The notes under the pieces were generated by a model that made no database searches, was not told where the DNA came from, and saw only the letters and a list, made by a program, of their open reading frames with translations. A DNA stretch of 35,645 bases from an uncultured Verrucomicrobiota bacterium (GTDB lineage: Bacteria; Verrucomicrobiota; Verrucomicrobiia; Palsa-1439), in contig CAZAQZ010000001.1 in the NCBI GenBank assembly GCA_964487175.1, forward strand, positions 1 to 35,645, read 5' to 3'. The position numbers and the translations under genes were made by a program. Numbering within the stretch: position 1 is the first letter of the stretch; each line of letters begins with the position of its first letter. Positions 1,588 to 29,059 of the stretch are shown here, piece after piece.

Positions 1588-3732
1588 TCAGGCTTTTGGT
1601 CCGCCCGCCTTCTCGGCGGCGCCCTTGGGATAATAACCGTAATCGTAATACGGATCGCCGTAGGCAGACCGGCGCGTGCGCGGCACGGCATTAAGGATCA
1701 CCCCGGAGAGCGGCGCACCGGCCCGTTCGAGGACTTTGATGGCGCGAATGGCGATCATCTTCGGCGTCTTGCGCACCCGGACCACCAGGCATACGGAATC
1801 GATGTGATTGACCAACAGCAATGTGTCACTCACGCCGAAAATTGGCGCGGAATCCACGACGACCCGCTCGAACCGGCGCAACGCTTCTTCCATGAGCGCG
1901 GTGCAGGCGGCCGGCGTCAGCAATTCCGGCGCGCCCGGTGAATAGGGTCCGGCGGAGAGGCACCAGAGATTATTGATCCGTGTTTCCTGCACGAGATCGT
2001 CGAATCGTTGTTTGCCGCCGAGGAATTGCGTCACGCCCCAGGTGTTCCGGTTTTGGCCCCAGAGAAATTCATCCACCATCGGACGGCGCAAATCGCAATC
2101 GATCAACACGGTGCTAAGGCCCTGTTGCGCGAGGCTGACCGCGTAGTTGGCGGCGCAGAACGTCTTGCCTTCGCCGGGCATGGCGCTGGTGAACAAAAAG
2201 CTGCGCAGTTGTTTTTCCTGGCCCTGCATGGAGAGTGAAGTGCGCAGGCAACGGAATGATTCCGCCCCGGAAGTGGGCGTTTCGTCCTCCATGACGATTC
2301 TTCTTTCGCCGACTTTGACGCCGGGGATTTGAGGCACGGTGCTGAGGACAGGCATCTTCAGGATTTGCTCGGCTTCGGCGAGCGTCTTGAAAGAGTCGTC
2401 CAGGAACCCGCGTCCCAAGGCCAGCCCGAGCCCGAGACCCAAGCCAGCCAGTATGCCGAACACGAAGATGGCCGGCCTATTGGGTTTGATCGGTTTCTTG
2501 GGCGTTTCCGCCTTTTGGAAGACCTGAATGCTTTGGGTGGTGTAATTGCCGGCGATGGTTGCTTCGCCCATGCGCTTGACCACGGAATCGTACAGGGCGC
2601 GGTACTGCTCGATGTCGCGCATCAGGACGTTATAAGGCACAAACTGCTTGTTCAGCGCCTGCGCCTGTTCCTCCTGTTTGGACAATTCGTTTCCGAGGGC
2701 GACCTCCTGTGCGAGGGCATTTTCGTAGGCAACGCCAGTCACTTGCGCGGCTTTGACCACGGTGTTGGACAGCGCCTGATCGAGCTGGTCGAGCTTGTTT
2801 TCCGCCTGGATGTAAGTCGGATGCTTATCGAGATAGACCTGCCTGATGTTCGCGAATTCGATCTCCTGTTTGGTGACATCGGCCCTGGCTGCAGCCACTC
2901 CCGGGTCGGCGGCAATCGCGGGCAGACCCATCAGTTGTTGCACGTCGTCACCGACTTCATGCACGCGCTGGAACACAGTCTCCAGGCGCACGCGTTCGGC
3001 CTTGGCGGACTCCACTTTTTCATTCAGTCCCTTGAGGTTCTCGGCAACAATGGCCTGCCGCTGTTCGAGCGTGAGGGACTGGTCCTTGTAGGTCTGTAAT
3101 TTGGATTCGGCTTCATTCAACTTATGCTGCAATTCCTGGGCTTCCTCCCCGAGGAACGCCACGGCTTCTTGCGAGGCTTCCTTGTAGGATTCGGAATTCT
3201 GCCGGATGATCTCGTCGAGCATGGAGTTGGCGATTTGGGTGCAGAGTCGCGGGTCAGAGTGCTCGATGGTCACATCGATCAAATGCGTGCCCTTTCGCAG
3301 TTTGATGGAGGTCATCACGAATAATTTCGACTCGAGGATGACTTCGCGGGCGGGGGTCAGCGGTCCTGGCAGGTCGAACCGCGGATCGCGCGTCAGATTG
3401 TTGGTGGCGACGATGCGAGCCAGCGTGGAGGGGTTCTTCAGCAGTTGCTCGATCTCCGTCACTTTCTCCGACATCACATCTTCGCCGTGCGCGTCGTCGT
3501 GGCCCAGGCCTTCCATGTTGAGAATCTTGGGTTGCGCCGGTTCATACTTCAAAACCCCTGTGGCGGCGTAGACAGTGGGGGCGCGCGTGAGATAAATGGT
3601 CGTCAGGACCACCGCGATCACCAGGCAAAAGGTGATCAACCGGTAGTTTTCCAGAAGCATGTAAACGACATTTCGCCAGTCGAATGGAGGAGCGGTCGTT
3701 TCTTCTGATTGTTGGTAATCCTCGTCAAACAT
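1588..3732 (-). CDS. Polysaccharide co-polymerase / tyrosine autokinase (PCP-2a, Wzc/EpsB/GumC-like)
   Basis: There are two TM segments (VYMLLENYRLITFCLVIAVVLTTIYL and AIFVFGILAGLGLGLGLALG) flanking a long coiled-coil-like region. The C-terminal BY-kinase domain has Walker A (PGEGKT), A' (VLIDCDLRRP) and B (VVVDSAP), plus a Tyr-rich tail (YGDPYYDYGYY). Confidence 0.92.
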   Translation of the reverse strand: MFDEDYQQSEETTAPPFDWRNVVYMLLENYRLITFCLVIAVVLTTIYLTRAPTVYAATGVLKYEPAQPKILNMEGLGHDDAHGEDVMSEKVTEIEQLLKNPSTLARIVATNNLTRDPRFDLPGPLTPAREVILESKLFVMTSIKLRKGTHLIDVTIEHSDPRLCTQIANSMLDEIIRQNSESYKEASQEAVAFLGEEAQELQHKLNEAESKLQTYKDQSLTLEQRQAIVAENLKGLNEKVESAKAERVRLETVFQRVHEVGDDVQQLMGLPAIAADPGVAAARADVTKQEIEFANIRQVYLDKHPTYIQAENKLDQLDQALSNTVVKAAQVTGVAYENALAQEVALGNELSKQEEQAQALNKQFVPYNVLMRDIEQYRALYDSVVKRMGEATIAGNYTTQSIQVFQKAETPKKPIKPNRPAIFVFGILAGLGLGLGLALGRGFLDDSFKTLAEAEQILKMPVLSTVPQIPGVKVGERRIVMEDETPTSGAESFRCLRTSLSMQGQEKQLRSFLFTSAMPGEGKTFCAANYAVSLAQQGLSTVLIDCDLRRPMVDEFLWGQNRNTWGVTQFLGGKQRFDDLVQETRINNLWCLSAGPYSPGAPELLTPAACTALMEEALRRFERVVVDSAPIFGVSDTLLLVNHIDSVCLVVRVRKTPKMIAIRAIKVLERAGAPLSGVILNAVPRTRRSAYGDPYYDYGYYPKGAAEKAGGPKA

Positions 3733-4442
3733 CTCGATGGCTCAATATGACTTGGTTGCAGACACTAACAAAAGTAAAAGCACAAATCAAACCGATGGGA
3801 CCGGTTCTGTCGTCATTTCGTGGCAAAAAACACCCCAAGGCAGCGTTCTCAAGGGGAAAAGGCTTTGGACTGGCCCATCGGTAACCTGGGCTGTGGGAGG
3901 CACCTTGATTTGCGAGCCCCGGTGTTCAGTTTGCCGGACATTGTTGTTCAGGCTGTCCAGTTGAAATGTAAGATTTCCAGAACAGTGTGGCCCTTTGCGA
4001 CCCCGATAAAGGCGATTATTTTATGGACTAATGCTCGACAAACGAGCGAGTTAGCACTACGATTTAGAATCGCCTGCCAAACCTTATTTTTATTGGCACG
4101 CGGGGCGCTTAGGATGGCGAGTGCGAGTTTGTTCAATGTGGCGATCGGGCTCAAGGAAGTCAAATCAACGAACCACCGAGGGTGGATCGAGCAAAATGCT
4201 CGATTTCACCCCCCGGCGAAGCCGTCGTAAATTGATTTCTCGATGGGCGTTTCCACGGATTTGCATAGCGAAACCACGTTGAGGCAATGAGTTCGGGGCG
4301 GAGCGCACTGTTGCATCGCGCTTCGGCGCCCGTGTGAGGATGTGCTCCAAAGTCCCCTGTACGGACAGACTTGGAGAGTTGTGCATATACAGGTCGAATA
4401 GGCCTTGGCAGGGTTGTTGCATCCACAGATGTGACCGCCAGT

Positions 4443-4490: not shown

Positions 4491-5381
4491 ATGAGTACGA
4501 TCTCGACCACTTCAACCACACCTGTTGCTCCCGAAGAGAAACAGGTTGTCCACAAGCCGGAGTTGCATTTGCTCCGGCTCCAGTCGTCCAAAGGCTGGGT
4601 GTCACTCAATCTGCGGGAACTGTGGGAGTTCCGCGAACTGCTCTATTTCCTTACGTGGCGGGACATCAAGATCCGTTACAAGCAGACCGCCTTGGGTGCG
4701 TCCTGGGCGATCATCCAGCCCGTGTTTACGATGATCGTGTTCAGCATATTCTTCGGGAAACTGGCGAAGATGCCTTCGGACGGGATTCCGTATCCCATTT
4801 TCAGTTTCACCGCGTTGGTGCCGTGGACGCTGTTCGTGTACGGGTTGATGCAATCGTCGAACAGCCTGGTCGGCAGCGCGAACCTGATCCGCAAAGTGTA
4901 TTTCCCGCGCCTGGTCATCCCGATTTCGTCGCTGCTTTCCGGCGTGGCGGATTTTCTCGTCGCGTTTGCCGTGCTGCTATGCATGATGGCCTATTTCAAA
5001 ATCATCCCCAGCATCCACGTGATCTACGTGCCCTTCTTCCTGTTGCTGACAATTATCACGTCGCTCGGGGTCGGATTATGGCTCTCCGCCCTGAACGTGC
5101 AATACCGCGACGTGAAATATGTGGTGCCGTTTCTGACACAATTCTGGATGTATGCCACGCCGATTGCGTATCCCAGCAGCCTGTTGCACGAACCATGGCG
5201 CACCTTGTTTGGTTTGAACCCGATGACGGGTGTTGTCGAGGGTTTCCGCTGGAGTTTGCTGGGATCGAAGACGTATCCGGGATCGATGCTGATCATGTCC
5301 ACGGCCGTGGCCTTGCTGATGTTGGTCAGTGGCGCGTATTATTTCCGTCGCATGGAACGCACGTTCTCTGACCTGGTTTAA
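4491..5381 (+). CDS. wzm: ABC-2 type polysaccharide export permease (Wzm/KpsM/TagG family)
   Basis: The ABC-2 signature region is WEFRELLYFLTWRDIKIRYKQTALGASWAIIQP, followed by about six hydrophobic segments. The length (296 aa) is typical for Wzm. Confidence 0.92.
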   Translation: MSTISTTSTTPVAPEEKQVVHKPELHLLRLQSSKGWVSLNLRELWEFRELLYFLTWRDIKIRYKQTALGASWAIIQPVFTMIVFSIFFGKLAKMPSDGIPYPIFSFTALVPWTLFVYGLMQSSNSLVGSANLIRKVYFPRLVIPISSLLSGVADFLVAFAVLLCMMAYFKIIPSIHVIYVPFFLLLTIITSLGVGLWLSALNVQYRDVKYVVPFLTQFWMYATPIAYPSSLLHEPWRTLFGLNPMTGVVEGFRWSLLGSKTYPGSMLIMSTAVALLMLVSGAYYFRRMERTFSDLV

Positions 5382-6434
5382 TGAATTCGCACGATTCAAA
5401 GTCCGCGCTCCTCGGCAAGTTGGGCCTCCAGCCTGATGCGGGCCGCTGCCTGATCATTGGCGAAGTGGCGCAGGCGCATGATGGCAGTGTGGGGCTGGCC
5501 CATTCGTTCATCGACGCCATTGCCGCTGCCGGGGCCGATGCGGTCAAGTTTCAGACCCACATTGCCGCCGCCGAGAGCACTCCGGCCGAGCCATGGCGCG
5601 TGAAGTTCAGTCGGCAGGATGAAAGCCGCTTCGCCTACTGGAAGCGGATGGAGTTTACCGAACAACAGTGGATTGAGCTGAAACGACACGCCGACGAGCG
5701 TGGGCTGCTGTTCCTCAGTTCGCCGTTTTCGCTGGAAGCCGTCGAATTGCTCGAACGGGTCGGCGTTTGCGCCTGGAAGGTTGCTTCCGGCGAAATCGGC
5801 GGATCGATGATGTTCGACCGGATGGCCAAAACAAAACTGCCGATGCTGCTGTCCACCGGAATGAGCCCGATGGAGGAAATCGACCGTGCGGTCGATCAAG
5901 TCAAGCAGTGCGGCCTGCCGCTGGTCGTGCTTCAATGCACGACGGCATATCCCTGCCCGCCCGAGAAGGTGGGTTTGAATCTGATTCCGATTCTTCGCGA
6001 GCGGTACCAGACGGCTGTGGGATTGTCCGATCATTCCGGAACGATCTATCCAGGTCTGGCGGCCGCAACGCTGGGAATTTCCGTCCTGGAAGTGCACGTG
6101 GCGCTCAGCCGCGAAATGCACGGCCCGGACGTGTCCGCTTCGGTCACGACGGCGGAGTTGAAACAATTGGTGGACGGCGTGCGCTTCATCGAAAAGATGA
6201 AGGCCAGCCCCATCGACAAGAACGGTCTCGCCGCCGAACTGCGGCCGTTGCGTGAATTGTTCGGCAAAAGCATCGTGGCGCGCCGGGATTTGCCTGCCGG
6301 CACGGTATTGAAGCTGGAACATCTCGCCCTCAGAAAACCCGGCAGCGGTCTGCCGGAGAAGAAACTCAGTCGGGTCTTGAATCGCAAACTCCGCGTTCCG
6401 CTTTCGGTCAACGCGTTTATTTTGGAGGAGCACC

Positions 6435-6442
<8 letters not shown>
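5381..6442 (+). CDS. neuB: N-acetylneuraminate (nonulosonate) synthase, NeuB family
   Basis: N-terminal TIM-barrel motif IIGEVAQAHDGS with KFQTH. The C-terminal SAF domain reads IVARRDLPAGTVLKLEHLALRKPGSGL. Its ATG overlaps the wzm stop (TAATG). Confidence 0.9.
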
Positions 6443-7654
<1,212 letters not shown>

Positions 7655-7667
<13 letters not shown>

Positions 7668-8356
7668 GAATCGTCACCGCGCGCGGCGGCTCCAAGGGCA
7701 TTCCGGGCAAGAATATTCGCCCGATCTGCGGGAAGCCGTTGCTACAATACACCGCCGAAACGGCCCTCGCGGCGAAGCGCCTGACGCGCGTTGTCCTCAA
7801 TACGGACGACGAGGAAATTGCCGCAGTGGGACGTCGATGCGGGCTCGAGGTGCCGTTCATGCGGCCGCCCGAATTGGCCAAGGACGATACGCCGCACGTG
7901 CCTGTGTTGCAGGACGTGGTGAGGAAATTGGAACAGGCTGGAGAGAAATACGACGCGATCCTGACGTTGCAGCCAACGAATCCGTTGCGGCTGCCGTCCG
8001 ACATCGACGGAGCGATCGAGTTGCTTGAGAAAACCGGAGCCGATTCTGTGATTTCGTTTGTCCCTGTCGGCGAGAAACATCCGGCCCGGATGAAGTTCAT
8101 CGACGATGACGGCCGCGTGATTGATCCGCCGTTTGCCGAGAAGTTTGAAGGACAACGCCGGCAGGATCTGCAAAAACTTTTTCTGCGCGAAGGGTCGATT
8201 TACCTGACCCGTCGGGATGTGCTGATGATTCACAATTCTCTCAAAGGCCGCGATTGCCGTGCGTGGATCATCCCCGAAGATCGTGCCTGCAATATTGATA
8301 CGCCATTCGATCTGTTTCTCGTGGAGCAGTTGTTGAAACACCATGGCCGCGCCTAA
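7655..8356 (+). CDS. neuA: Acylneuraminate cytidylyltransferase (CMP-nonulosonate synthetase), short form
   Basis: N-terminal motif TARGGSKGIPGKNI. At 233 aa it is the cytidylyltransferase domain only, with no C-terminal esterase domain. It overlaps neuC by 13 nt. Confidence 0.9.
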
Positions 8357-9350
8357 GCCAGTCATTCTCGTTACGGAGTCGCTCGACTTCTCCAAGGAAG
8401 CCGTCGCCATGCTCCGCCGCGTGGGTAAAGTGGTCCTCAGCGACCTTGACCGTCCCCGTCTGTTGCGAGCCGTTGCACAGGCCGACGTTCTCTGGATACG
8501 GTTGCGCCATCGCATCGACGCGGAAGTGATGGATCACGCGCCGCGCCTGAAATTCATCGTCAGTCCCACCACCGGCCTGAACCACATCGATCTCGAAGAA
8601 GCGTCGCGTCGCGGTATCCGCGTGCTCTCGCTGCGCGGGGAAACTGAATTTCTGAAGAACGTTCACGCCACGGCGGAACATACCGTCGGTTTGTTGCTCG
8701 CCCTGGTGCGCCACATTCCCGAATCGAGGTCCCACGTCATCAGCGGCGGCTGGATTCGCGATCGTTTCCGCGGCAATGAACTTCAAGGCAAGACGGCAGG
8801 TGTCGTGGGTTACGGACGATTGGGCCGGATCGTCGCGCACATCCTTCTCGCATTTGAAATGCGGGTGCTGGCAAGCGATCCACACGTGTGGACTACCGAC
8901 GCCGATCCGGGAGTGGAAATCGTGCCGTTGAACGAATTGTTGCGCGAGTCTGATGTCGTTTCACTGCATGTAAACCTCTACGCCGAGACCAGCGGCTTCT
9001 TTGGGGCCAACCATTTCGCACAAATGAAACCCGGCGCGTGGTTCATCAACACCGCGCGCGGTGAATTGGTGGACGAGGCGGCTTTGTTGGAATCACTGCA
9101 GACGGGCCGGTTAAGCGGCGCGGCGGTGGACGTGTTGTCCGACGAGCGTTCCACGGGCATGAACAATCATCCGTTGGTTCAGTACGCGCGCCAGCATGAG
9201 AACCTGATCGTAACGCCGCACATCGGTGGATGCACGATAGAGTCCATGGAGAAAACGGAATTGCACATGGCCAAGAAGCTTTGTGATGCGTTGTCGGCGA
9301 AGAGCGCTGATGTGCCGCCGCTTTCGGCATCTGAGGTTCGGCCGTCATGA
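8343..9350 (+). CDS. D-isomer-specific 2-hydroxyacid dehydrogenase (SerA/glycerate dehydrogenase-like), NAD-binding
   Basis: Rossmann motif GKTAGVVGYGRLGRIVA. Catalytic-region motifs are NTARGELVDEAAL, DVLSDE and TPHIGG (catalytic His). It overlaps neuA by 14 nt. Confidence 0.88.
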   Translation: MAAPKPVILVTESLDFSKEAVAMLRRVGKVVLSDLDRPRLLRAVAQADVLWIRLRHRIDAEVMDHAPRLKFIVSPTTGLNHIDLEEASRRGIRVLSLRGETEFLKNVHATAEHTVGLLLALVRHIPESRSHVISGGWIRDRFRGNELQGKTAGVVGYGRLGRIVAHILLAFEMRVLASDPHVWTTDADPGVEIVPLNELLRESDVVSLHVNLYAETSGFFGANHFAQMKPGAWFINTARGELVDEAALLESLQTGRLSGAAVDVLSDERSTGMNNHPLVQYARQHENLIVTPHIGGCTIESMEKTELHMAKKLCDALSAKSADVPPLSASEVRPS

Positions 9351-10323: not shown

Positions 10324-12144
10324 ATGAACCACGACCTTCAACAAATCCTCGCCTCGCTCGACCAGCGTCCGAGTATGGCGGCGTACATGCAAGCCGCGCG
10401 GCAGATACCATCGCTCCGCGAAGTGCTCGTGCCCGTGCGCCTGGCGCTGCTGGCGTCGTTCACCATCGATTCCCACGCGCCATTTCTGGTTGTCGAGGCG
10501 GCACGGCTGGGATTTGGCGGGGAGATGTACGTCGCTCCGTTCAATTCGGTGAAACAGGAACTGTTTGATCCAAGCAGCGGCTGCGCCCGGCATAAACCCG
10601 ACGTCGTGTTCATTGCGAATCTTCTGACAGATGTTTCACCGGCGCTGGCGAATGAATCGCTCGCGCAGGATGCGGCGCAACTGGATCAACAAATCGACGC
10701 GCTCGTTGCCGACACCCTTGCCCCGGTGCAGGAATTCTGGAAACGTTGTGGGGCAACCGTGATTCTCCACAATTTCACGCGTCCACGCTATCCCGCGCTC
10801 GGCATTTACGAAGGAATGGCGGCTGGTTCTCCGACGGACGTGATCAATCGCATCAACGCGCGCCTGGCGAAGGCGGCGGCGGCGATTCCGGGTGTTTACG
10901 TCCTCGATTTCGACCGCGTTTGCGCGGAGGTCGGCTACGCCAATTGTTACGACGACAAGATGTGGTATCTGGGCCGCTCGCCATTTTCAGTTTCCGTGTG
11001 GCAGTTGCTCGCCCAGAATCAGGCAGCATTCATCCGCGCGCTGCTTGGTCCGCAGCGGAAATGTCTCGTGCTCGATTTGGACAACGTTCTCTGGGGCGGG
11101 ATCATTGGCGAAGCCGGACTGGCCAACATCAAGCTTGGTCAAACTTATCCCGGCAACGTGTTCCGGGATATCCAGCAGGCTGTGTTGGAATTGTATCACC
11201 GGGGCATACTGCTGGCGATCAACAGCAAGAACAATCCCGCGGACGTGGACGAAGTGTTCGCCTCGCATCCCGACATGATTCTGAAGAAACAACATTTCGC
11301 CTGCATCCGCGTCAATTGGCAGGACAAACCGTCGAACATGCGGGAGATCGCCCGAGAATTGAACATCGGCATCGAGAGCCTGGTGTTCTTTGACGACAAT
11401 CCCGCCGAGCAGGAATTGATGCGCGAAGCGTTGCCGCAGGTCTTGACGCTGCCCGTGCCTGCTGAGCCGATGAAATACGTGAAAGCGCTCCGGGACAGCC
11501 GCGCGTTCGACCGTTTGTCGCTCACCGACGAAGACCGCCGTCGCGGCGAGATGTACCGGCAACAATCTGCCCGCCATCAACTCGAGCAGTTGGCCACGTC
11601 GCTCCAGGATTTCCTGACCGGCTTGCAAATGTCGGTCGCCATTGACCGCGTCGATGAATTTGCCTTCCCGCGTGTCGCCGACTTGTTCCAGAAGACGAAT
11701 CAATTCAATCTTACGACACGCCGGCATCTCGCGCCGCAGCTCCGCGCGAAGATGGACGACCCGGCTTGTGGCGTGTTCAGCCTGCGGGTAATCGACCGGT
11801 TTGGCGACAATGGCATCGTGGGTGTGGCCATTATCCAGCAACAGGACGAGACGGCGGTAATCGAATCCTTGTTAATGAGTTGCCGTGTCATTGGGCGCAC
11901 GATCGAGACTGCGTTGTTGTCGTTCCTCGTGGATTGGGCGAAGGATCGCGGCCTCGGCGCGCTGGAAGGCGAGTTCATCCCCACGGCCAAGAATGTGCCG
12001 GCGGCGGATTTCTACGCCCGACATGGATTTTCGCAATTGGGTGGCGCCGCCCTCGGAACGCGGTGGCGATTGGAGCTTAACAAAGTTCCGTTCCAGTGGC
12101 CGACCTACATTCTACGCAGCGCGCAGGCTGTCGCAGGAAAATAA
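10324..12144 (+). CDS. FkbH-like HAD-IIIC family enzyme (putative glyceryl-S-ACP forming)
   Basis: HAD motifs: I LVLDLDNVLWGG, II LAINSKN, III VFFDDNP. The C-terminal acyltransferase-like domain has a conserved Cys (LLMSCRVIGR). I took the start at ATG 10324 (MNHDLQQ), 5 nt after the GT2 stop. The longer track ORF (9976) would overlap the GT2 gene. Confidence 0.85.
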   Translation: MNHDLQQILASLDQRPSMAAYMQAARQIPSLREVLVPVRLALLASFTIDSHAPFLVVEAARLGFGGEMYVAPFNSVKQELFDPSSGCARHKPDVVFIANLLTDVSPALANESLAQDAAQLDQQIDALVADTLAPVQEFWKRCGATVILHNFTRPRYPALGIYEGMAAGSPTDVINRINARLAKAAAAIPGVYVLDFDRVCAEVGYANCYDDKMWYLGRSPFSVSVWQLLAQNQAAFIRALLGPQRKCLVLDLDNVLWGGIIGEAGLANIKLGQTYPGNVFRDIQQAVLELYHRGILLAINSKNNPADVDEVFASHPDMILKKQHFACIRVNWQDKPSNMREIARELNIGIESLVFFDDNPAEQELMREALPQVLTLPVPAEPMKYVKALRDSRAFDRLSLTDEDRRRGEMYRQQSARHQLEQLATSLQDFLTGLQMSVAIDRVDEFAFPRVADLFQKTNQFNLTTRRHLAPQLRAKMDDPACGVFSLRVIDRFGDNGIVGVAIIQQQDETAVIESLLMSCRVIGRTIETALLSFLVDWAKDRGLGALEGEFIPTAKNVPAADFYARHGFSQLGGAALGTRWRLELNKVPFQWPTYILRSAQAVAGK

Positions 12145-12145
12145 G

Positions 12146-12421
12146 ATGAACGCAACGAATGGCAAAGTCGTGAGCGCCACAGTCAAGACCTACGATCGTC
12201 TGTGCCAGATGATAGCCGGAGTGCTTGGCGTGACCGCGTCAGAGTTATCGGACACATCCTCCCCGGACACGATCGCGGCATGGGATTCGTTAAATCATTT
12301 GAATCTTGTAATGGCGTTGGAAAGCGAATTTGGCGTCAGCCTGTCGCCGGAAGACGCGCTGGAAATGCGCACGGTTGGATTGATGCGCGAGATTCTTCGG
12401 CGCAACGGAGTGGAAATCTGA
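12146..12421 (+). CDS. Acyl carrier protein
   Basis: It is 91 aa with the phosphopantetheine attachment motif AWDSLNHLNLVMALE (DSL). The ATG at 12146 lies 1 nt after the FkbH-like stop. Confidence 0.9.
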   Translation: MNATNGKVVSATVKTYDRLCQMIAGVLGVTASELSDTSSPDTIAAWDSLNHLNLVMALESEFGVSLSPEDALEMRTVGLMREILRRNGVEI

Positions 12422-13521
12422 TGAAGACGGCCTTCGTGGATTGCCAGGAACGGCAGATCGGGGAAGTGCGCGAGTTCTTCGCGCGGGCATACCGGCCGAC
12501 GTATCGATTGGCGACGGATGAATCTTTGTTGCGGTGGCAATATGGTCCGACGCCATCCAGTCCCAACAAGCCTTGTCATTTGAAGCTCTCCTTGCTCGAT
12601 GGAGCGGTGGCGGGATGCCTGGGTTACATCCCGGCAGAGGTCAGCCTGAATGGACATATCTTGAAGGGCGCGTGGGTCGCGAACTGGATGGTCGATCCCG
12701 AGCAGCGGCGGTTGGGACTCGGTCCGTTCTTGATGCGCGAGGTTGTGAAACAATTTCAAGTGAACCTGGATTTGGGCGCGAATGAAGACGCGCGTGACTT
12801 ACTGTCCCGGATGGGCTGGAAGGATTTTGGCAATCTGGCACGGTACGTATGCGTGCTGGATTTATCAGGGACAGCTGCCTTGACCGAGAGCGGACGGTTG
12901 CAGTGGCCATCAGCGGCAGCGCCCCTGCCAGGGATTTCGAAAGGTCGTTCCATCGAAGTCGGGATGGTCGATGAATTCGATGACGAAGCGACGGAACTGT
13001 GGGATCGCACGTGGGGCGCGAAGGACTCTCACGCGGGCGGTACGCGCCGTTCGGCGGCGTTTCTCAACTGGAGATACGCGAGTCATCCGGTATTCAAGTA
13101 TCGCCTGTTTGAAGTTCACCAAAACGGGCGGCTCAGCGGCGTTGCGGTCTATCACGTCGAACACGTCCGAGATCTTCCAGTACGCGTGGGCCGGATGGTG
13201 GAACTGATCCTCGACGTCGCGCACCCGTCCGACTCCGACGGTGTGCTGTTGAGGGCCGTGATGGAGGATGCGAAATCGCAAGGCGTCGCGGTGATGGATT
13301 TCTTCAATGCGAGCAAACGTCTCGCGGATGTGATGACGCGCCATGGATTTCTACCAGGTGAGAGCGAACCGGCGATGCAGATCCCGATGTTATTTCAGCC
13401 GGTGGACCGGCGGCGATCGGGGATTCGTTTCATGGCGAGCCTGGGGAATGTTCCCGAAGCAGCGGAAGTGCAGGACTGGTACGTTACGAAGAGCGATGGC
13501 GACCAAGACCGGCCAAACTGA
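12421..13521 (+). CDS. Large GNAT-like (FemAB/Acetyltransf_6-like) acyltransferase
   Basis: It is 366 aa with a GNAT-like core (GAWVANWMVDPEQRRLGLGPFLMREV) and a second C-terminal lobe. The start overlaps the ACP stop (TGATG). It is a paralogue of 23465-24517. Family assignment is from motif resemblance only. Confidence 0.7.
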   Translation: MKTAFVDCQERQIGEVREFFARAYRPTYRLATDESLLRWQYGPTPSSPNKPCHLKLSLLDGAVAGCLGYIPAEVSLNGHILKGAWVANWMVDPEQRRLGLGPFLMREVVKQFQVNLDLGANEDARDLLSRMGWKDFGNLARYVCVLDLSGTAALTESGRLQWPSAAAPLPGISKGRSIEVGMVDEFDDEATELWDRTWGAKDSHAGGTRRSAAFLNWRYASHPVFKYRLFEVHQNGRLSGVAVYHVEHVRDLPVRVGRMVELILDVAHPSDSDGVLLRAVMEDAKSQGVAVMDFFNASKRLADVMTRHGFLPGESEPAMQIPMLFQPVDRRRSGIRFMASLGNVPEAAEVQDWYVTKSDGDQDRPN

Positions 13522-13524
13522 TGA

Positions 13525-13989
13525 ATGAGCGCGACGAACATGATGCAATGGGCTGATATCGAGCGGATTAAAGCAGGCGACACGGCGGCGTGCGATTTTG
13601 TCGTGAACGCGCAGGCCGTGCAGACGTTCGCCGATTTATCCCTGGACGACAACGCGCTGCACATGGACGCCGCGGTCGCGGAATCGTGCGGGTTTCTCAA
13701 GCGTGTTGCACACGGCATGCTGGCGTTGAGCGCGATCTCGCGGCTGATCGGCACGCAATTGCCTGGGCATGGCTCGTTGTGGAGCTCTGAGGAATTACGA
13801 TTTGTCACTCCGGTGTTTGTGGGTGATTCACTCACGGCGCGGGTCACGGTCGAACAGGTTTCGCGCGGCGCCGGGATGGTGAAATTGAAGACGGAAGTTC
13901 AGAACAACACTACCGGTGCGGTCGTGCTATCCGGCACAGCGATGGTCAAGGTTCCGCTGCGCAAGGACAAGGAAGGGAAACCGGCATGA
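13525..13989 (+). CDS. MaoC-like hotdog-fold (R)-specific dehydratase/hydratase
   Basis: Hydratase-2-like motif FADLSLDDNALHMD (Asp/His pair) followed by VAHGML. The ~154 aa length fits a single hotdog domain. Confidence 0.85.
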   Translation: MSATNMMQWADIERIKAGDTAACDFVVNAQAVQTFADLSLDDNALHMDAAVAESCGFLKRVAHGMLALSAISRLIGTQLPGHGSLWSSEELRFVTPVFVGDSLTARVTVEQVSRGAGMVKLKTEVQNNTTGAVVLSGTAMVKVPLRKDKEGKPA

Positions 13990-14960
13990 GCGCATCGAGT
14001 CCTTCCTTGTGGGCGATCAATTACCACTACGTCCGGGATCTTTCGCGCACGCGATATCCGCGCATTCGGGGCCGGTTGACAAGCGATTTCGAACAGCAGG
14101 TCGCATGGTTGAGCGAACGGTGTGAAATGGCCACGCTTGAATCGGCAGCGGATTTTCTGGCAGGCAAATACGAAGCGGGCCGCGATTTGTGCCTGCTGAC
14201 GTTCGACGACGGATTGAAGGACCATTACACCAACGTGTTGCCGATCCTTGCCGACCGGGGAATCCAGGGACTGTTTTTCATCTGCACGGTCTGCCTGGAG
14301 AAAAACTATGTACTGCCGGTCCACAAGAACCATTTCCTGATGGCTGCACTGGAATTCAACGAGTACCGGAAGGCATTTTTAGAGCAGTTGGCCCTGTTGA
14401 CGAGCGAGACGCCGGACACGGTTGATGTCGAGAAAGCGAAACTCGGTTATCCGTACGACAGCGAAGAAGTGGCAGTGTTCAAGTTTTTTCTCAATTACGT
14501 TGTCGCCGAGCCGCTGCGAGTACGAGTGCTGGATGTATTGTTCGAAAGATATTTCGGCAATGAAGCGGCGTTTGCGAAGGAATTGTATCTGAACTGGGAT
14601 GAAGCCCAGCAGATGCAAACCGGCGGAATGATCATTGGTGGTCACACCCACAATCACGTGGCGCTCTCAACGCTGAGCAACGAGGAGCAGGCGGTGGATT
14701 TGGCCACGTGCGGCTCGGTGTTGCGCAAACGTCTCAAGCCGCAGGAATTCTGGCCATTCTGTTATCCATATGGCCACAGCTATTCGTTCAATGCCGCGAC
14801 CATCCAGCGGCTCAAGGCAGTCGGCTTCATATGCGCATTCACCACGGAAACCGGCTCAAACCGGCCCGGCGATGATCTGTTCACTTTGCGGCGGGTTGAT
14901 ACCAACGACGTGTTGAAGAAAATGCAGCCCGTGCAGGCTGCAGTAACGGCGAGCAAATAG
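13986..14960 (+). CDS. Polysaccharide deacetylase family protein (NodB homology / CE4)
   Basis: NodB motif 1 is LLTFDDGLKDHY and the His motif is GGHTHNH. ATGA overlap with the MaoC gene. Confidence 0.85.
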   Translation: MSASSPSLWAINYHYVRDLSRTRYPRIRGRLTSDFEQQVAWLSERCEMATLESAADFLAGKYEAGRDLCLLTFDDGLKDHYTNVLPILADRGIQGLFFICTVCLEKNYVLPVHKNHFLMAALEFNEYRKAFLEQLALLTSETPDTVDVEKAKLGYPYDSEEVAVFKFFLNYVVAEPLRVRVLDVLFERYFGNEAAFAKELYLNWDEAQQMQTGGMIIGGHTHNHVALSTLSNEEQAVDLATCGSVLRKRLKPQEFWPFCYPYGHSYSFNAATIQRLKAVGFICAFTTETGSNRPGDDLFTLRRVDTNDVLKKMQPVQAAVTASK

Positions 14961-14964
14961 ATCT

Positions 14965-16722
14965 ATGTGTGGCATCATCGGAATGTTTGGTTCAGGGATT
15001 GACCGCGCACTGTTCGACGCGGCAGTCGCCAGTCAGGGTCATCGCGGTCCGGACGCGACGGGCGTGCACATTTCGCCCAGCGGTTTGGCGGCGCTGGGCC
15101 ACAACCGGCTCAGTATCATTGATCTCTCCGATGCGGGTCGCCAACCAATGCCCGATTCAAGCGGGCGTTACTGGATTGTTTTCAACGGCGAGGTGTACAA
15201 CTACATCGAGCTGCGCAAGGAATTGGAATCGCATTACGCCTTCCGGTCGCAAACGGACACAGAAGTTCTGCTGGCGGCTTATGAGAAATGGGGCGAAGCA
15301 TGTCTCGACCGGCTCATCGGCATGTTCGCGTTTGCGATTTGGGACGAGCAGAAACAGGAATTATTCGCGGCGCGTGACCGGTTCGGAGTCAAGCCGCTCT
15401 ATCTATACGAGCCGGCGGGTGGGAGCCTATGGCTCGCCAGCGAGATTAAGGCGCTTCATGCGGCGGGAGCGCCTGCGGACATGGACGGTATCGCTTGGGC
15501 GACGTATTTGGCGTCCGGCATGTACGATCATGGAACCAGGACGTTCTGGCGTGATGTCCGGCGCGTGCCACCGGGCGGCTGTCTGACGTGGAGCGTACGC
15601 AACGGTCTCAAAGAACGCATCTGGTACGATCCCGCGACGGCAGTGTTGAGACTCGGCATGGACACGCGCAGCGACACCGAGGTGGGACACGAACTTCTGG
15701 AATTGCTCGAGAACAGCGTCAAACTCCGATTTCGGGCGGATGTGCCGGTCGGTGTCTGTCTTTCCGGCGGATTCGATTCCTCCTTGTTGCTGGGACTGGT
15801 GCATCGTCTTCAAGGCAACGACTCGAGCGTCAAGACGTTCACTTTTTTTTGTGGCGACCCAGCGTATGATGAAACGCCATGGGTCGAGAAGATGCTCGAA
15901 GCGACCAAGCATCCGTCATTTTTCTGCCGGTTGAGCGCCGATGAAGTTCCGGAACTCGCGGCGCGCGTGCAAAGCTTCCAGGATGAACCGTTTGGTGGAC
16001 TGCCCACACTGGGCATGGCGAAGGTTCATGAACGCGCGGCCGCCGAGGGCGTGATTGTGTTGCTGGACGGCAACGGTCTCGACGAAGGATGGGCTGGATA
16101 CGATTATTACGCGCGGGCCCGCGATGTGGACGCATCCGTCGGGCCGGTGCAGGGCTCGACCGGGAAGACCAAGCAAGGGGCCTGTCTGGTGGCGGACTTT
16201 GCCCGGCTGGCATTGCCGTTCGTGCTGGCGCGACCATTTGGCGATGCATTGCTTGACCTGCAGTACCGTGACATCATGCAGGCGAAAATACCTCGGGCGA
16301 TGCGGTTTGCAGACCGGGTTTCGATGATGTACAGCCGGGAATTGCGCGAACCATTTCTGGATCATCGGATTGTGGAGTTGGGATTGCGTCAGCCCGCGGA
16401 CCGGAAAATACGCGATAGTCAGGGCAAGTGGTTACCACGGCAGATTGCTGCGCAACTTGTCCCCGGTGGCGTGCGTGAGGCGCCGAAACGGCCTGTCCAA
16501 ACACCGCAGCGGGAATGGTTGCGCGGTCCGCTCAAGGGGTGGGTTGAAACGCAATTGGAGATTGTGTTGGGCGAATTTGGCGGGAGTTGGTTCGATGAGG
16601 CGGCGATGAGACAGCGGTGGAGCGATTATCAGCAGCAGGGCGGAGACAACAGTTTCTTTCTCTGGCAGTGGGTGAATCTGGGGCTGATGTTGCAAAAGCA
16701 GGGAGCAGGGGCACTGGTATGA
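14965..16722 (+). CDS. Asparagine synthase-like glutamine amidotransferase (AsnB family)
   Basis: N-terminal nucleophile MCGIIG and PP-loop motif CLSGGFDSS. The length is 585 aa. Confidence 0.9.
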   Translation: MCGIIGMFGSGIDRALFDAAVASQGHRGPDATGVHISPSGLAALGHNRLSIIDLSDAGRQPMPDSSGRYWIVFNGEVYNYIELRKELESHYAFRSQTDTEVLLAAYEKWGEACLDRLIGMFAFAIWDEQKQELFAARDRFGVKPLYLYEPAGGSLWLASEIKALHAAGAPADMDGIAWATYLASGMYDHGTRTFWRDVRRVPPGGCLTWSVRNGLKERIWYDPATAVLRLGMDTRSDTEVGHELLELLENSVKLRFRADVPVGVCLSGGFDSSLLLGLVHRLQGNDSSVKTFTFFCGDPAYDETPWVEKMLEATKHPSFFCRLSADEVPELAARVQSFQDEPFGGLPTLGMAKVHERAAAEGVIVLLDGNGLDEGWAGYDYYARARDVDASVGPVQGSTGKTKQGACLVADFARLALPFVLARPFGDALLDLQYRDIMQAKIPRAMRFADRVSMMYSRELREPFLDHRIVELGLRQPADRKIRDSQGKWLPRQIAAQLVPGGVREAPKRPVQTPQREWLRGPLKGWVETQLEIVLGEFGGSWFDEAAMRQRWSDYQQQGGDNSFFLWQWVNLGLMLQKQGAGALV

Positions 16723-18014
16723 GTGATGTTGCAATTCGAGTTGTGAACGTGGGGAAGCAATTCCTCATTGGGGCCAAGCAGAGTGCATCGAGCGCGTTCG
16801 GCCATCGGCCCATGCTGCATGAGCGGTTGACCTCCGCCGCGAAGCGTGCGGTGAGCGCGCCGTTCAGAAAGAAGCACAGCAAGACGGAATCGTTTTGGGC
16901 GTTGCAGGATGTGTCGTTCGAGGTCCAGCGCGGCGAAGCCGTGGGTATTGTCGGCCACAACGGCGCAGGCAAAAGCACACTGCTGAAAATTCTTTCGCGG
17001 ATCACCGAACCAACGATTGGGTATGCGGACATATATGGCCGGCTGAGTTCCTTGCTCGAAGTGGGCACGGGGTTTCACCCGGAATTGACTGGCCGGGAGA
17101 ATATCTATCTCAATGCGGCGATTCTCGGAATGAAAGCGTCTGACATCGAGCGCAAATTTGACGAGATTGTCGCCTTTGCCGAAGTGGAGAAATTTATCGA
17201 CACGGCCGCCAAGCATTATTCGACCGGCATGTACCTGCGCCTGGCGTTTTCGGTGGCGGCCCATCTGGAGCCGGAAATCCTGCTGGTCGACGAGGTGCTG
17301 GCGGTCGGCGACGCGTCATTCCAGAAGAAATGCCTCGGCAAAATGGAAGACGTGGCGAAACAGGGGCGCACCGTACTATTTGTCAGCCACAACATGGCGG
17401 CGGTGGAAGGTCTATGCCAGAAGGTTGTCTGGCTGCAGCATGGGCGCATTCACCAAATCGGCGATTCCCACGAGATTGTACCATTATATCTTCGCACCGC
17501 GCTTGAGACGATCACCGAACAATGCTGGGACGATCCGAATACCGCTCCGGGCAACGATAAGGTGCGCTTACATCGCGTTTGCGTGCGACCGGCCGACAAT
17601 GACGCGCTGGGGTCCATCAATATTCGTACACAGTACGTGATCGAGTTCGAATACTGGAACATGGTTCCCGACTCGCGGCTCGACCTCAGCTTTCATTTGT
17701 ACAATGAGCAGGGGATCATGGTGTTCAATCACAACACCTATCTCGAGCAGGCCTGGCACGGCCGCCCGCGTCCCCAAGGCCTGTTCCGCTCGACCTGTTT
17801 CATCCCAGGCGACCTGATGAACGATGGCGAACACAAGGTCAACCTCGTCGTTACGTCCGATCAGGCGCAGGCGATTTACAAGCACTCTGACCTTTTGGCC
17901 TTTACGGTGCTCGATGCGCCGGAAATGCGAAACGCGTGGCACGGTCGGTGGCCGGGCGCGGTGCGGCCGAATTTGAAATGGAAGACGGAGTTTCTGGAAA
18001 ACTCCGAGCACTGA
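16719..18014 (+). CDS. wzt: Polysaccharide ABC exporter ATP-binding protein with C-terminal Wzt_C-like domain
   Basis: Walker A GHNGAGKST, signature YSTGMYLRLAF, Walker B ILLVDE. About 160 extra C-terminal residues are beta-rich (RVCVRP...IEFEYWN...LSFHLYNEQG...VNLVV). ATG 16719 overlaps the asnB-like stop (ATGA). Confidence 0.9.
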   Translation: MSDVAIRVVNVGKQFLIGAKQSASSAFGHRPMLHERLTSAAKRAVSAPFRKKHSKTESFWALQDVSFEVQRGEAVGIVGHNGAGKSTLLKILSRITEPTIGYADIYGRLSSLLEVGTGFHPELTGRENIYLNAAILGMKASDIERKFDEIVAFAEVEKFIDTAAKHYSTGMYLRLAFSVAAHLEPEILLVDEVLAVGDASFQKKCLGKMEDVAKQGRTVLFVSHNMAAVEGLCQKVVWLQHGRIHQIGDSHEIVPLYLRTALETITEQCWDDPNTAPGNDKVRLHRVCVRPADNDALGSINIRTQYVIEFEYWNMVPDSRLDLSFHLYNEQGIMVFNHNTYLEQAWHGRPRPQGLFRSTCFIPGDLMNDGEHKVNLVVTSDQAQAIYKHSDLLAFTVLDAPEMRNAWHGRWPGAVRPNLKWKTEFLENSEH

Positions 18015-21005: not shown

Positions 21006-22043
21006 ATGCAAGGCCGGGTATTTGCGGGCCGTTCTTCTCGGACCAGAGACAATGGGCATCCCGTTGATGTTTCAGTAATCATTTGCACGTACAATCGATC
21101 AGAGAGTTTGCGACGGACGTTGCAGGCGTTCTGCGATCTCGAGATCCCGCGCAACGTGACCTGGGAGTTATTGGTGGTGGATAATAACTCCAGGGACGCC
21201 ACGCGCGCGGTCTGCAGCGACTTCGCGGCGAGACTCCCGTTGCGCTACCTGTTTGAAGCGTCGCAGGGACAAAACAACGCCCTGAACCGCGGTGTCGAAG
21301 AGGCCGAGGCGGATTTATTGCTGTTCACGGACGACGATGTGGACGTGGAACCGCAGTGGCTGGTGAGTTTCCTGAATGTCGCCAGGCGATATCCGGCTGT
21401 GAGTTTCTTTGGCGGGAAAGTCATTCCACGTTGGGAGTGTGCGCCTCCACAATGGCTAAGCGAGAACGCAAACTCATTGCTTCGTCATGTGGCGACAGCA
21501 TTTGAAATGGGTGAATCAGAAGTGTTCGTGACTGCCTCCGATTGTGTATTCTACGGAGCCAATCTTGCCATTCGCAAGCAGGCGTTCCTGGGGACAACGA
21601 AATTTCGTCCCGACCTCGGGCCGTGCGGCGTGGGACAGGTCCGTGGCGGGGAAACGGCGCTGCTGCGGGAATTGCTGGCTGATGGCCATAAGGGGTTATA
21701 CGTGCCTTCGATGGCCGTGTACCATCGAAACACGTCCTCCCGTATGACCGAATCATATGTGCGCGCCTATTATCACGGGGCCGGTGTTACGGAAGTGCGC
21801 ATGAACGAATCGCGAAATGGTCACAAGGCTTTCCTGGGTGCGCCGAGATACCTTTGGTTGAAGCTGACGAAACATGCGCTTCAGTACGCGATGTTTCGCT
21901 GGACGCGGCCATCTGCGGTCTGGTTGCGGGCGGAAATCGAGATGGCGACCAGCTGGGGCCGGATCACGGAGTTGCGCCGGCTCCATAAGCAAGCGGATGA
22001 TCAACTTGTGGGTGAAGCTCAGGTCCACACAGCCCGGGTGTAA
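21006..22043 (+). CDS. Glycosyltransferase family 2
   Basis: GT-A signature VSVIICTYNRSESLRRTL...LLVVDNNSRDAT and DxD motif FTDDDVD. Confidence 0.85.
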   Translation: MQGRVFAGRSSRTRDNGHPVDVSVIICTYNRSESLRRTLQAFCDLEIPRNVTWELLVVDNNSRDATRAVCSDFAARLPLRYLFEASQGQNNALNRGVEEAEADLLLFTDDDVDVEPQWLVSFLNVARRYPAVSFFGGKVIPRWECAPPQWLSENANSLLRHVATAFEMGESEVFVTASDCVFYGANLAIRKQAFLGTTKFRPDLGPCGVGQVRGGETALLRELLADGHKGLYVPSMAVYHRNTSSRMTESYVRAYYHGAGVTEVRMNESRNGHKAFLGAPRYLWLKLTKHALQYAMFRWTRPSAVWLRAEIEMATSWGRITELRRLHKQADDQLVGEAQVHTARV

Positions 22044-29046: not shown

Positions 29047-29059
29047 GGCGAAGACAGTC

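Follow-up and report, generated by a model that had tools for sequence, protein, structure and literature searches.

A candidate N-acyl exchange cassette for nonulosonic acids, with an FkbH-like loader and a tandem GNAT protein, in a Verrucomicrobiota glycan operon

We analysed a 35,645-nt stretch of DNA (the window; positions 1-35,645 of contig CAZAQZ010000001.1) from an uncultured Verrucomicrobiota bacterium (Palsa-1439), in which five consecutive genes encode an FkbH-like enzyme, an acyl carrier protein (ACP), a GNAT-like protein, a MaoC protein and a CE4 protein. With moderate confidence, we read this cassette as an N-acyl exchange module, which would first deacetylate and then re-acylate the nitrogen N5 that a nonulosonic acid derives from N-acetylglucosamine (GlcNAc), using a C3 donor made from 1,3-bisphosphoglycerate. 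The evidence comes from the presence of the genes, the conservation of catalytic residues, gene fusions, synteny and the mutual exclusivity of the acyl loaders. Its gene neighbourhoods mark the cassette as an accessory of nonulosonate pathways that is both modular and conserved. Somewhat more tentatively, it may represent a widespread modular system for editing the N5-acyl group in genomes and MAGs labelled as about 15 bacterial phyla and as DPANN archaea, in which case an N-(C3-hydroxyacyl)neuraminic acid would be the product here.

The cassette and its conserved core

The FkbH-like enzyme (10324-12144; 606 aa), the ACP (12146-12421; 91 aa), the GNAT-like protein (12421-13521; 366 aa), MaoC (13525-13989; 154 aa) and CE4 (13986-14960; 324 aa) are all encoded on the + strand, where an earlier note on this DNA had placed them. 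Read in this order, the junctions TAAgATG (with the ACP start 1 nt past the FkbH stop codon), TGATG, TGAtgaATG and ATGA point to translational coupling of the five genes. All five proteins exceed curated profile cut-offs (Pfam, NCBIfam/TIGR models), and the searches proposed in the note for FkbH, HAD-IIIC, PP-binding, GNAT, MaoC and CE4 domains each returned a match above the cut-off. Likewise, the motifs it had quoted (HAD, the DSL serine of the ACP, Asp/His of MaoC and DD/HH of CE4) fall in conserved catalytic columns.

A one-genome-per-species scan gave 303 relatives of the GNAT-like protein, and 80 loci were analysed. Genes were counted with domain-level hidden Markov model (HMM) envelopes on six-frame open reading frames (ORFs) located no more than 10 kb from the GNAT-like gene, and the remaining ORFs were grouped by de novo clustering; 44 of the 80 loci have full 10-kb flanks. 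According to the labels of the genomes and metagenome-assembled genomes (MAGs), the loci belong to about 15 phyla, including Verrucomicrobiota, Acidobacteriota, Chloroflexota, Planctomycetota, Patescibacteria, Gemmatimonadota, Pseudomonadota, Bacillota (Sporomusa malonica), Bacteroidota (Pedobacter steynii), Actinomycetota and Bdellovibrionota, with further loci labelled as Desulfovibrio piger and Binatia. Moreover, a Prochlorococcus single-cell genome and two MAGs labelled Nanoarchaeota carry such loci. A CE4 gene is present in 67/80 loci, an ACP gene in 48/80, an FkbH gene in 43/80 and a MaoC gene in 27/80, which bears out a gene neighbourhood conserved beside the GNAT gene. Any of NeuA, NeuB and NeuC occurs in 47/80 loci, and the full-flank loci contain CE4 in 41/44 and any Neu gene in 33/44 cases. 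In six loci (L055, L071, L077, L078, L084, L089) the Neu genes are even interleaved with the cassette.

The composition of the loci further reveals how the cassette varies. FkbH is accompanied by an ACP in 39 of its 43 loci, and an AMP-dependent ligase is found in 17 loci, an HSD17B10/FabG-like short-chain dehydrogenase/reductase (SDR) in 23 and a VOC/glyoxalase protein in 5. FkbH and the AMP-ligase share no locus (43 and 17 loci, overlap 0), which argues for two interchangeable acyl-loading modules on one CE4 and GNAT core. Judged by gene content, CE4 and the tandem GNAT thus appear as an invariant core that is fed by interchangeable loaders. Additional evidence comes from fusions: ACP and GNAT are joined in the close relatives P0002-P0008 as well as in L011, L012, L015 and L018, FkbH, ACP and GNAT form one protein in L020 and L066 (Aureliella and Pirellulaceae MAGs), P0181 and P0242, and single cases combine an AMP-binding domain with GNAT (P0264) or GNAT with an S-adenosylmethionine (SAM) methyltransferase (P0384).

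The GNAT-like protein matches Acetyltransf_9 (32.1 bits, cut-off 25) and Acetyltransf_1 (27.6 bits, cut-off 20.7) and has no match among the NCBIfam models. The additional label "FemAB-like" used in the earlier note had to be dropped, as Acetyltransf_6 (PF13480) reaches only 16.6 bits with a cut-off of 22 and no Fem protein is found in the top 50 Foldseek matches. An AlphaFold2 (AF2) model with a predicted local distance difference test (pLDDT) score of 89 consists of two GNAT folds, hence a tandem GNAT, and aligns over its full length with 2OZG (an uncharacterised Anabaena protein), N-myristoyltransferases (NMT) and Eis/Eis2 with template-modelling (TM) scores of 0.5-0.6 and 10-14% identity. 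A sequence search of the PDB found no characterised close relative of either this protein or CE4. The family shares the C-terminal motif DWYVTKxDGDQDRPN and has 9,163 representatives (50% clustering) at E<=1e-3 and 510 at E<=1e-30. By these sequence criteria, the 366-aa tandem GNAT can be regarded as the founder of a large unnamed family, and we propose that it transfers the ACP-bound acyl group to a freed amine.

Two further proteins deserve mention. A second tandem-GNAT-like ORF (23351-24517; 388 aa) is located in the window 3' of the gene for a TagB-like protein. It is a distant paralogue of the cassette GNAT (28% identity over the N-terminal domain, E 1e-11), has no NCBIfam match, and a homologue was not detected in most related loci. 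The other is an orphan member of the tandem-GNAT family on the Escherichia albertii plasmid p3RM15115 (L091, 11627-12694; 22% identity, E 1e-17). This orphan is found on several 62-kb E. albertii plasmids without CE4, ACP or Neu genes nearby and is uninformative.

For CE4, Polysacc_deac_1 (PF01522) scores 71.2 bits with a cut-off of 23.1, and both the Asp-Asp (TFDD) and the His-x3-His metal/catalytic motifs are kept in 69/69 proteins from related loci. The translation has no hydrophobic N-terminal signal. We therefore propose a cytoplasmic de-N-acetylase of the NodB-homology type, predicted to expose the amine for re-acylation. An alternative is O-acylation, in which the GNAT-like protein would esterify a sugar hydroxyl, comparable to the 9-O-lactyl sialic acid of animals, and CE4 would be an unrelated esterase or editing enzyme. 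Lactyl esters of sialic acid do occur naturally, and FkbH-like/ACP pairs are combined with MBOAT or WcbI-type putative O-acyltransferases on Sinorhizobium meliloti pSymB and a Niveispirillum plasmid. However, GNATs and above all tandem Eis/NMT-like ones are overwhelmingly N-acyltransferases, the known bacterial products are amides, and the near-obligate pairing of CE4 and GNAT (41/44) finds its simplest explanation if a single nitrogen is first deacetylated and then re-acylated. We thus regard O-acylation as distinctly improbable.

Proposed loading and processing of a C3 unit

The FkbH-like enzyme covers model positions 2-320 of 323 of TIGR01686 with 311.6 bits (cut-off 146.65) and matches the HAD-IIIC model TIGR01681 with 66.7 bits (cut-off 35.75). 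Together with a match to FkbH_N (PF21211) and a C-terminal GNAT-fold match, this gives three domains: FkbH_N, a HAD-IIIC phosphatase and a C-terminal single GNAT fold that contains Cys520. In the PDB, the uncharacterised Bacteroides fragilis protein BF1531 (3SLR) matches residues 37-401 (E 5e-48). The same structure was found by Foldseek with the AF2 model (pLDDT 88) at a TM-score (TMt) of 0.82, in addition to GNAT folds for the C-terminus.

To assess residue conservation, alignments of 11 and 35 sequences were made, including the FkbH of a Streptomyces tetronate-type cluster (L008) that is encoded between a FabH-like ketosynthase III (KSIII) and an ACP near a polyketide synthase (PKS). The two proteins are related with a phmmer E-value of 1.6e-86 and an identity of about 31%. 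D251, D253, S301-K302-N303, K335, D357-D358 and S519-C520-R521 are invariant in both alignments. Accordingly, the HAD aspartates and the C-terminal cysteine to which the earlier note had tied its interpretation are indeed the conserved positions. Because glycan-type and PKS-type proteins share invariant HAD motifs and an invariant SCR cysteine, the same phosphatase-plus-thioester chemistry can be argued for both. On this basis we propose that the FkbH-like enzyme loads a C3 acyl unit from 1,3-bisphosphoglycerate onto the ACP.

It is also conceivable that the enzyme makes no glyceryl-ACP and instead uses another phosphorylated donor, or an acyl-CoA via its GNAT domain, so that the ACP would carry an acetyl, 3-hydroxybutyryl or phosphoglyceryl group. 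With the tetronate-cluster FkbH, the enzyme shares only about 31% identity, the FkbH_N domain is without known function and 3SLR is uncharacterised. Furthermore, the usual substrates of MaoC/PhaJ enzymes are C4-C6 3-hydroxyacyl thioesters, and nonulosonates with an N-3-hydroxybutanoyl group are common. On the other hand, the catalytic motifs are the same in both types of protein, the whole TIGR01686 model is matched at twice the cut-off, and the module of AMP-ligase and SDR, which never occurs together with FkbH, already covers acyl groups of the hydroxybutyryl type. Taken together, we consider another donor rather improbable.

FkbH-like/ACP pairs also have partners from other acyltransferase classes. 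On a pSymB-like plasmid of S. meliloti RCAM1750 (L009, 815-5849) they are combined with an MBOAT protein in a Dlt-like logic, and on the Niveispirillum plasmid (L010, 9806-14286) with a WcbI-family putative acetyltransferase and an SDR. In S. meliloti 1021 pSymB (L007) the FkbH-like gene is frameshifted. Judging by these combinations, FkbH/ACP seems to be an acyl-donor module of general use in glycan loci.

The ACP itself is recognized by PF00550 (PP-binding, 35 bits), and the serine of its phosphopantetheine attachment site DSL is kept in 42/42 ACPs of related loci. As a candidate for its priming, the earlier note had named the Sfp-type 4'-phosphopantetheinyl transferase (PPTase) of the window (834-1580, +; PF01648, PF22624). 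This candidate is strengthened by its position, as relatives with 72% identity (L093, L094) have the Sfp-type PPTase at the same place beside Wzc, and by 10 other loci that have AcpS-type PPTases within the cassette.

MaoC matches MaoC_dehydratas (PF01575) with 68.2 bits, its nearest PDB entries are PhaJ (1IQ6, E 2e-21) and human HTD2, and the catalytic Asp and His are kept in 30/30 proteins. MaoC goes along with FkbH in 24/27 loci, the remaining 3 being truncated. It never occurs together with VOC, which replaces it in other loci. We propose that this PhaJ/MaoC-type (R)-specific enzyme dehydrates glyceryl-ACP to enolpyruvoyl/pyruvoyl-ACP; thus MaoC probably steers the glyceryl unit towards pyruvoyl or lactyl. 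The gene order FkbH-ACP-MaoC-SDR-GNAT-CE4 recurs, for example in P. steynii DSM 19110 (L084), which is one of seven loci with an SDR directly after MaoC. No SDR was found in this window.

A gene between NeuA and the cassette encodes a short 2-hydroxyacid dehydrogenase similar to D-3-phosphoglycerate dehydrogenase (PGDH) (8343-9350, +; 2-Hacid_dh_C 184 bits), and PGDH structures are its closest PDB matches. It could be a pyruvoyl-to-D-lactyl reductase or contribute a step of the nonulosonate pathway. Inspection of gene orders showed that such a gene adjoins NeuA in 9/11 carrier loci from several phyla, L015, L025, L028, L045, L048, L065 and L066 being among the loci that have it. The final acyl group in the window could be glyceroyl, pyruvoyl or, with the PGDH-like or a distant reductase, D-lactyl.

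The combination of ACP, PPTase and hotdog dehydratase is typical of lipid and polyketide pathways, and glycans that depend on ABC transporters need special termini. Accordingly, the cassette might serve to make a small secondary metabolite or an anchor (lipid or aglycone) instead of decorating the glycan. However, profile searches of the window detected no ketosynthase (KS) or acyltransferase (AT) of the PKS or fatty acid synthase (FAS) type, in agreement with the missing PKS partner in the earlier note, and no thioesterase or condensation enzyme is encoded in the window either. A KSIII-like ORF is present in only 2/80 loci and a modular KS in none, and loci that lack ABC transporters as well as small-genome MAGs labelled Patescibacteria contain the cassette, too. 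The fold of the transferase, the CE4 pairing and the absence of condensing enzymes therefore disfavour both the O-acylation and the lipid or metabolite explanation, the latter of which we consider hardly credible.

The likely acceptor and the surrounding operon

The cassette is part of a single long + strand glycan operon with a GC content of about 58%, and the closest relatives of the window are uncultured Verrucomicrobiia. Separated from the cassette by one gene, the operon encodes NeuA (7655-8356, +; Pfam CTP_transf_3 match), preceded by NeuB (5381-6442, +; Pfam NeuB match) and a hydrolysing NeuC (6435-7667, +; Pfam Epimerase_2 match). NeuC passes the TIGR03568 equivalog cut-off (345 vs 235.9 bits); NeuB (285 bits, equivalog cut-off 399.65) and NeuA (145.7 bits, cut-off 205.7 of the PseF model) both score below theirs. 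A PseB/LegB dehydratase or an aminotransferase was not found in the window. Most likely, the three proteins form a cytidine monophosphate (CMP)-nonulosonate pathway of the N-acetylneuraminic acid (Neu5Ac) type, and its product or an intermediate is the likely acceptor.

Since one N-acetyl group of every nonulosonate stems from UDP-GlcNAc and ends up at N5, a change of the acyl group at N5 requires a deacetylase. The 4-amino-derived nitrogen of legionaminic (Leg) and pseudaminic (Pse) acid can be acylated directly, without a deacetylase. In the presumed Neu5Ac-type pathway of the window the sole nitrogen is N5, which fits the logic of deacetylation and re-acylation, and N5 is probably the acceptor nitrogen. 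The (R)-lactyl group of the one published N-lactyl Pse, which is bound to N5 (PMC7281560), fits this logic as well. Among the 80 loci, PseB-like dehydratases are present in 27 and PtmE-like nucleotidyltransferases in 18, so that the associated nonulosonate would be of the neuraminic acid (Neu), Leg or Pse type depending on the locus. To our knowledge, no true sialic acid with an N-acyl group other than acetyl or glycolyl has been reported from bacteria.

From these observations we infer the substrate, the final acyl group, the acceptor and the order of steps in the following scheme. According to the chemistry of the family, the FkbH-like enzyme would react with 1,3-bisphosphoglycerate so that Cys520 in its GNAT-fold domain carries a phosphoglyceryl/glyceryl thioester, the HAD domain would strip the phosphate, and D-glyceryl would be passed to the holo-ACP primed by the Sfp-type PPTase. 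In the second step, the PhaJ-like MaoC may dehydrate the 2,3-dihydroxyacyl thioester to enolpyruvoyl/pyruvoyl-ACP, which in sister loci the SDR after MaoC could convert to D-lactyl-ACP. The conserved pairing with GNAT suggests as a third step that the cytoplasmic CE4 removes the acetyl group inherited from UDP-GlcNAc, either at N5 of Neu, Leg or Pse or from the same nitrogen at the stage of UDP-GlcNAc or N-acetylmannosamine (ManNAc). Finally, as the fusions support, the tandem GNAT would pass the C3 acyl group from the ACP to the amine exposed by CE4. Afterwards, NeuB, NeuA and a TagB-like transferase could build, activate and install an N-(glyceroyl/lactyl/pyruvoyl) nonulosonate on the glycan, and the finished glycan would be exported by the Wzm/Wzt ABC transporter.

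The core of this scheme was already part of the earlier note, in which FkbH loads a C3 unit on the ACP, GNAT transfers it and an amino sugar or nonulosonate freed by CE4 accepts it. This core gains strong, though indirect, support from the conserved residues, the fusions, the neighbourhood of the 80 loci, the Neu genes in 33/44 full-flank loci and the conserved PPTase; its acyl group and its acceptor are tentative.

Several points weigh against the N-acyl exchange on nonulosonates outlined here. N-pyruvoyl groups are unusual, and CE4 enzymes classically act on polymers. The assignment of Cys520 as the counterpart of the catalytic Cys of OzmB is presumptive. In 11 MaoC loci there is no reductase nearby, hence lactyl would not be a general product, and we had to downgrade the 2-hydroxyacid dehydrogenase as a dedicated pyruvoyl reductase, as it tracks NeuA and is present in AMP-ligase loci too. 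In Tannerella forsythia, a published analysis of the glycosylation cluster yielded no candidate gene for the glyceroyl group (PMC6120980), which in this organism resides on N7, where a deacetylase would be unneeded. Via the GNAT of L049, a locus from a MAG labelled "Pseudomonadales", a link to Psychrobacter was sought and not found: the nearest match is a Candidatus Woesebacteria protein with 93% identity, and this search tied no cassette locus to an organism of known glycan structure.

Additional counter-evidence concerns the acceptor. No Neu genes are present within 10 kb in 11/44 full-flank loci, and a plasmid of Azospirillum thermophilum carries CE4-ACP-AMP-ligase-AsnB-GNAT in an exopolysaccharide (EPS)/O-antigen cluster, amid GT2, GT4 and O-antigen-ligase genes and without Neu genes. 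Thus, the acceptor is not always a nonulosonate. The same chemistry might therefore serve another acceptor, i.e. glucosamine (GlcN), mannosamine (ManN), a hexosaminuronate or a 6-deoxy-amino sugar of the repeat unit, which would be edited as nucleotide sugar or lipid-linked oligosaccharide, and the Neu genes would merely share the glycan locus. The many glycosyltransferases of the window indeed imply a glycan of several sugars, and a passage in PMC7281560 cites N-(R)-2-hydroxypropionyl perosamine from Vibrio cholerae O144. Nevertheless, 75% of the full-flank loci, which come from widely separated phyla, have Neu genes, in many cases intermingled with those of the cassette, and here the distance to NeuA is one gene. 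Another acceptor is hence an unlikely alternative to a nonulosonate.

L049 and L059 are contigs of one and the same "uncultured Pseudomonadales" MAG, for which the 93% match to Woesebacteria suggests a binning or labelling error.

Besides NeuB, NeuC, NeuA and the PPTase, the neighbours listed in the earlier note, namely glycosyltransferases, Wzm/Wzt and an FkbM-family methyltransferase, were all recovered. The glycosyltransferases are of the GT2, GT4 and GT14 families and are accompanied by a TagB-like and a Wzy_C protein. The role that the note had suggested for the FkbM-family enzyme (19070), O-methylation of the acyl group, found no support: such a gene is present in only 2/80 loci, is absent from the syntenic L001/L093, and sits here among glycosyltransferases beside Wzt, the protein not being of the FkbG type.

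Directly 3' of CE4 and translationally coupled to it, an AsnB-like glutamine amidotransferase is encoded (14965-16722, +; Asn_synthase 190 bits, TIGR01536 372 bits), whose membership in the cassette is uncertain. An AsnB-like gene is present in 10/80 loci, two of which (L003 and L004, from Acidobacteria) have a second copy 5' of FkbH, and a similar protein has been proposed for acetamidino formation in T. forsythia (PMC6120980). The AsnB-like protein of the window might introduce an amide or amidine into the sugar that the cassette modifies. The TagB/Glyphos_transf-like protein (21874-23487, +; PF04464 match) belongs to a family that recurs in 26/80 loci, and shows a sub-threshold match to NF046086 (BFO_1060 family; 33 bits vs cut-off 200), which includes the transferases for Pse5Am7Gra and a Leg derivative in T. 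forsythia (PMC5420450). This makes it a candidate for a sialyltransferase-like enzyme that would attach the modified nonulosonate.

At the distal end of the operon, a PaaK/CapK-like adenylate-forming enzyme (32857-34326) with a sub-threshold match to the model of the DVU_1553-family AMP-dependent ligase may provide a second acyl- or carboxylate-activating step of the glycan locus. In the window, ABC export (Wzm 4491-5381; Wzt with a Wzt_C terminator-recognition domain 16617-18014) coexists with a Wzc-like tyrosine-kinase co-polymerase (1588-3732, - strand) and a Wzy_C/O-antigen-ligase-like membrane protein (29015-30517). As annotated, the Wzt ORF shares about 100 nt with AsnB, so that a start codon further downstream is probably the real one. 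Neither Pfam nor NCBIfam has a match for the 136-aa ORF at 3820-4230, which is located between Wzm and the Wzc-like gene.

Related systems and implications

FkbH, OzmB and Tmn16-type enzymes are the glyceryl-S-ACP synthases of methoxymalonyl-ACP and tetronate pathways. The cassette resembles these systems in the full-length TIGR01686 match, the identical HAD motifs and SCR cysteine, the adjoining stand-alone ACP and the PPTase in the locus, and the order FkbH-ACP-PPTase is the same in the tetronate-type example L008. In contrast to methoxymalonyl and tetronate operons, the window is without FkbK/FkbI dehydrogenases, an FkbG O-methyltransferase, a FabH-like tetronate synthase or a PKS, and the downstream user is a tandem GNAT plus CE4 in a glycan locus. 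For the FkbH loading modules of trans-AT PKS, conversion of 1,3-bisphosphoglycerate and ACP to D-lactate-ACP has been tabulated (PMC7901079). Such modules (DH-KR-FkbH-ACP, as in BryA of bryostatin) likewise combine FkbH and ACP with a dehydratase (DH), and a ketoreductase (KR) is present in sister loci such as Pedobacter L084. The differences are that the cassette proteins are discrete, that MaoC/PhaJ is a single hotdog and not a PKS DH, that the window has no SDR, and that the product goes to an amine instead of a ketosynthase.

The logic of CE4 deacetylation followed by acyl-ACP-dependent transfer is shared with the N-acylation of Nod factors. There, the cytoplasmic CE4 enzyme NodB frees one GlcNAc-derived nitrogen, which NodA re-acylates in an acyl-ACP-dependent manner (NodF being the ACP). 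Here, the transferase is a tandem GNAT and not a NodA homologue, the acyl group would be a C3 glycolytic unit instead of a fatty acid, and the acceptor is probably a nonulosonate instead of a chitooligosaccharide. PseH and LegH also N-acylate the amine of a nonulosonate precursor. These single GNAT or LbH proteins N-acetylate the new 4-amino group from acetyl-CoA and need no deacetylase, whereas the transferase of the cassette belongs to the tandem-GNAT family.

Flagellin glycosylation islands of Aeromonas (group II orf1-3) are reported to contain genes for an ACP, a 3-oxoacyl-ACP reductase, an AMP-synthetase and a deacetylase with no role assigned (PMC7874193). Here and in V. cholerae O1, where RfbK-O provide the tetronate on perosamine, amino-sugar or pseudaminic-acid loci include an ACP of their own together with enzymes for acyl activation. 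Both sets resemble the AMP-ligase and SDR variant of the present family (17 loci), whereas the window uses an FkbH loader, and in the literature found those sets were not tied to CE4 and a tandem GNAT. Campylobacter jejuni has an FkbH-domain gene within its nonulosonate glycosylation locus as well. Pse with dimethylglyceric acid is missing in a strain in which this gene, cj1302, is a pseudogene (PMC7099621), which is a correlation only, and the published requirement is cj1295 (PMC3068675).

The sugars that the cassette would explain are already known. The capsule of Psychrobacter marincola contains 5-N-[(R)-2-hydroxypropanoyl]-Pse, with an (R)/D-lactyl group on N5, and was reported in 2020 without genetics (PMC7281560); the configuration matches the D-lactate-ACP of trans-AT FkbH modules. 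T. forsythia makes the N-glyceroyl derivative Pse5Am7Gra, for which the basis of the glyceroyl group was termed a "major challenge" in 2017 literature and the candidate gene "elusive" in 2018 (PMC6120980), and di-O-methylglyceroyl Pse is chemically established in C. jejuni (PMC3068675). The earlier note had pointed out that FkbH-like genes of glycan loci are biochemically undefined. This agrees with the open literature, in which we found a passing remark on cj1302 only and no description of a cassette of CE4, tandem GNAT and FkbH/ACP, with subscription journals outside the search. The cassette is hence not a categorically new system, since it would combine the glyceryl-ACP chemistry of FkbH with the Nod-like logic of deacetylation and re-acylation.

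The N-acyl groups of nonulosonates determine antigenicity, recognition by phages and lectins, and resistance to sialidases, yet apart from acetyl and acetimidoyl groups, few of the genes that install such N-acyl groups have been identified. In this context, the cassette offers the first testable genetic explanation for the N-lactyl and N-glyceroyl sugars of bacterial surfaces. As a signature of the family, a DGDQDRP-type tandem GNAT beside CE4 could be used to predict non-acetyl nonulosonates from genomes. Cultured carriers such as P. steynii DSM 19110, D. piger and S. malonica DSM 5090 make experiments feasible, and the enzymes might find use in the synthesis of N-acyl-modified sialic acids. 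If the proposed function is true, a loader of polyketide extender units would have been recruited into glycan tailoring, and the FkbH/ACP pair, known only from polyketide pathways, would divert glycolytic 1,3-bisphosphoglycerate into N-glyceroyl, N-lactyl or N-pyruvoyl nonulosonates.

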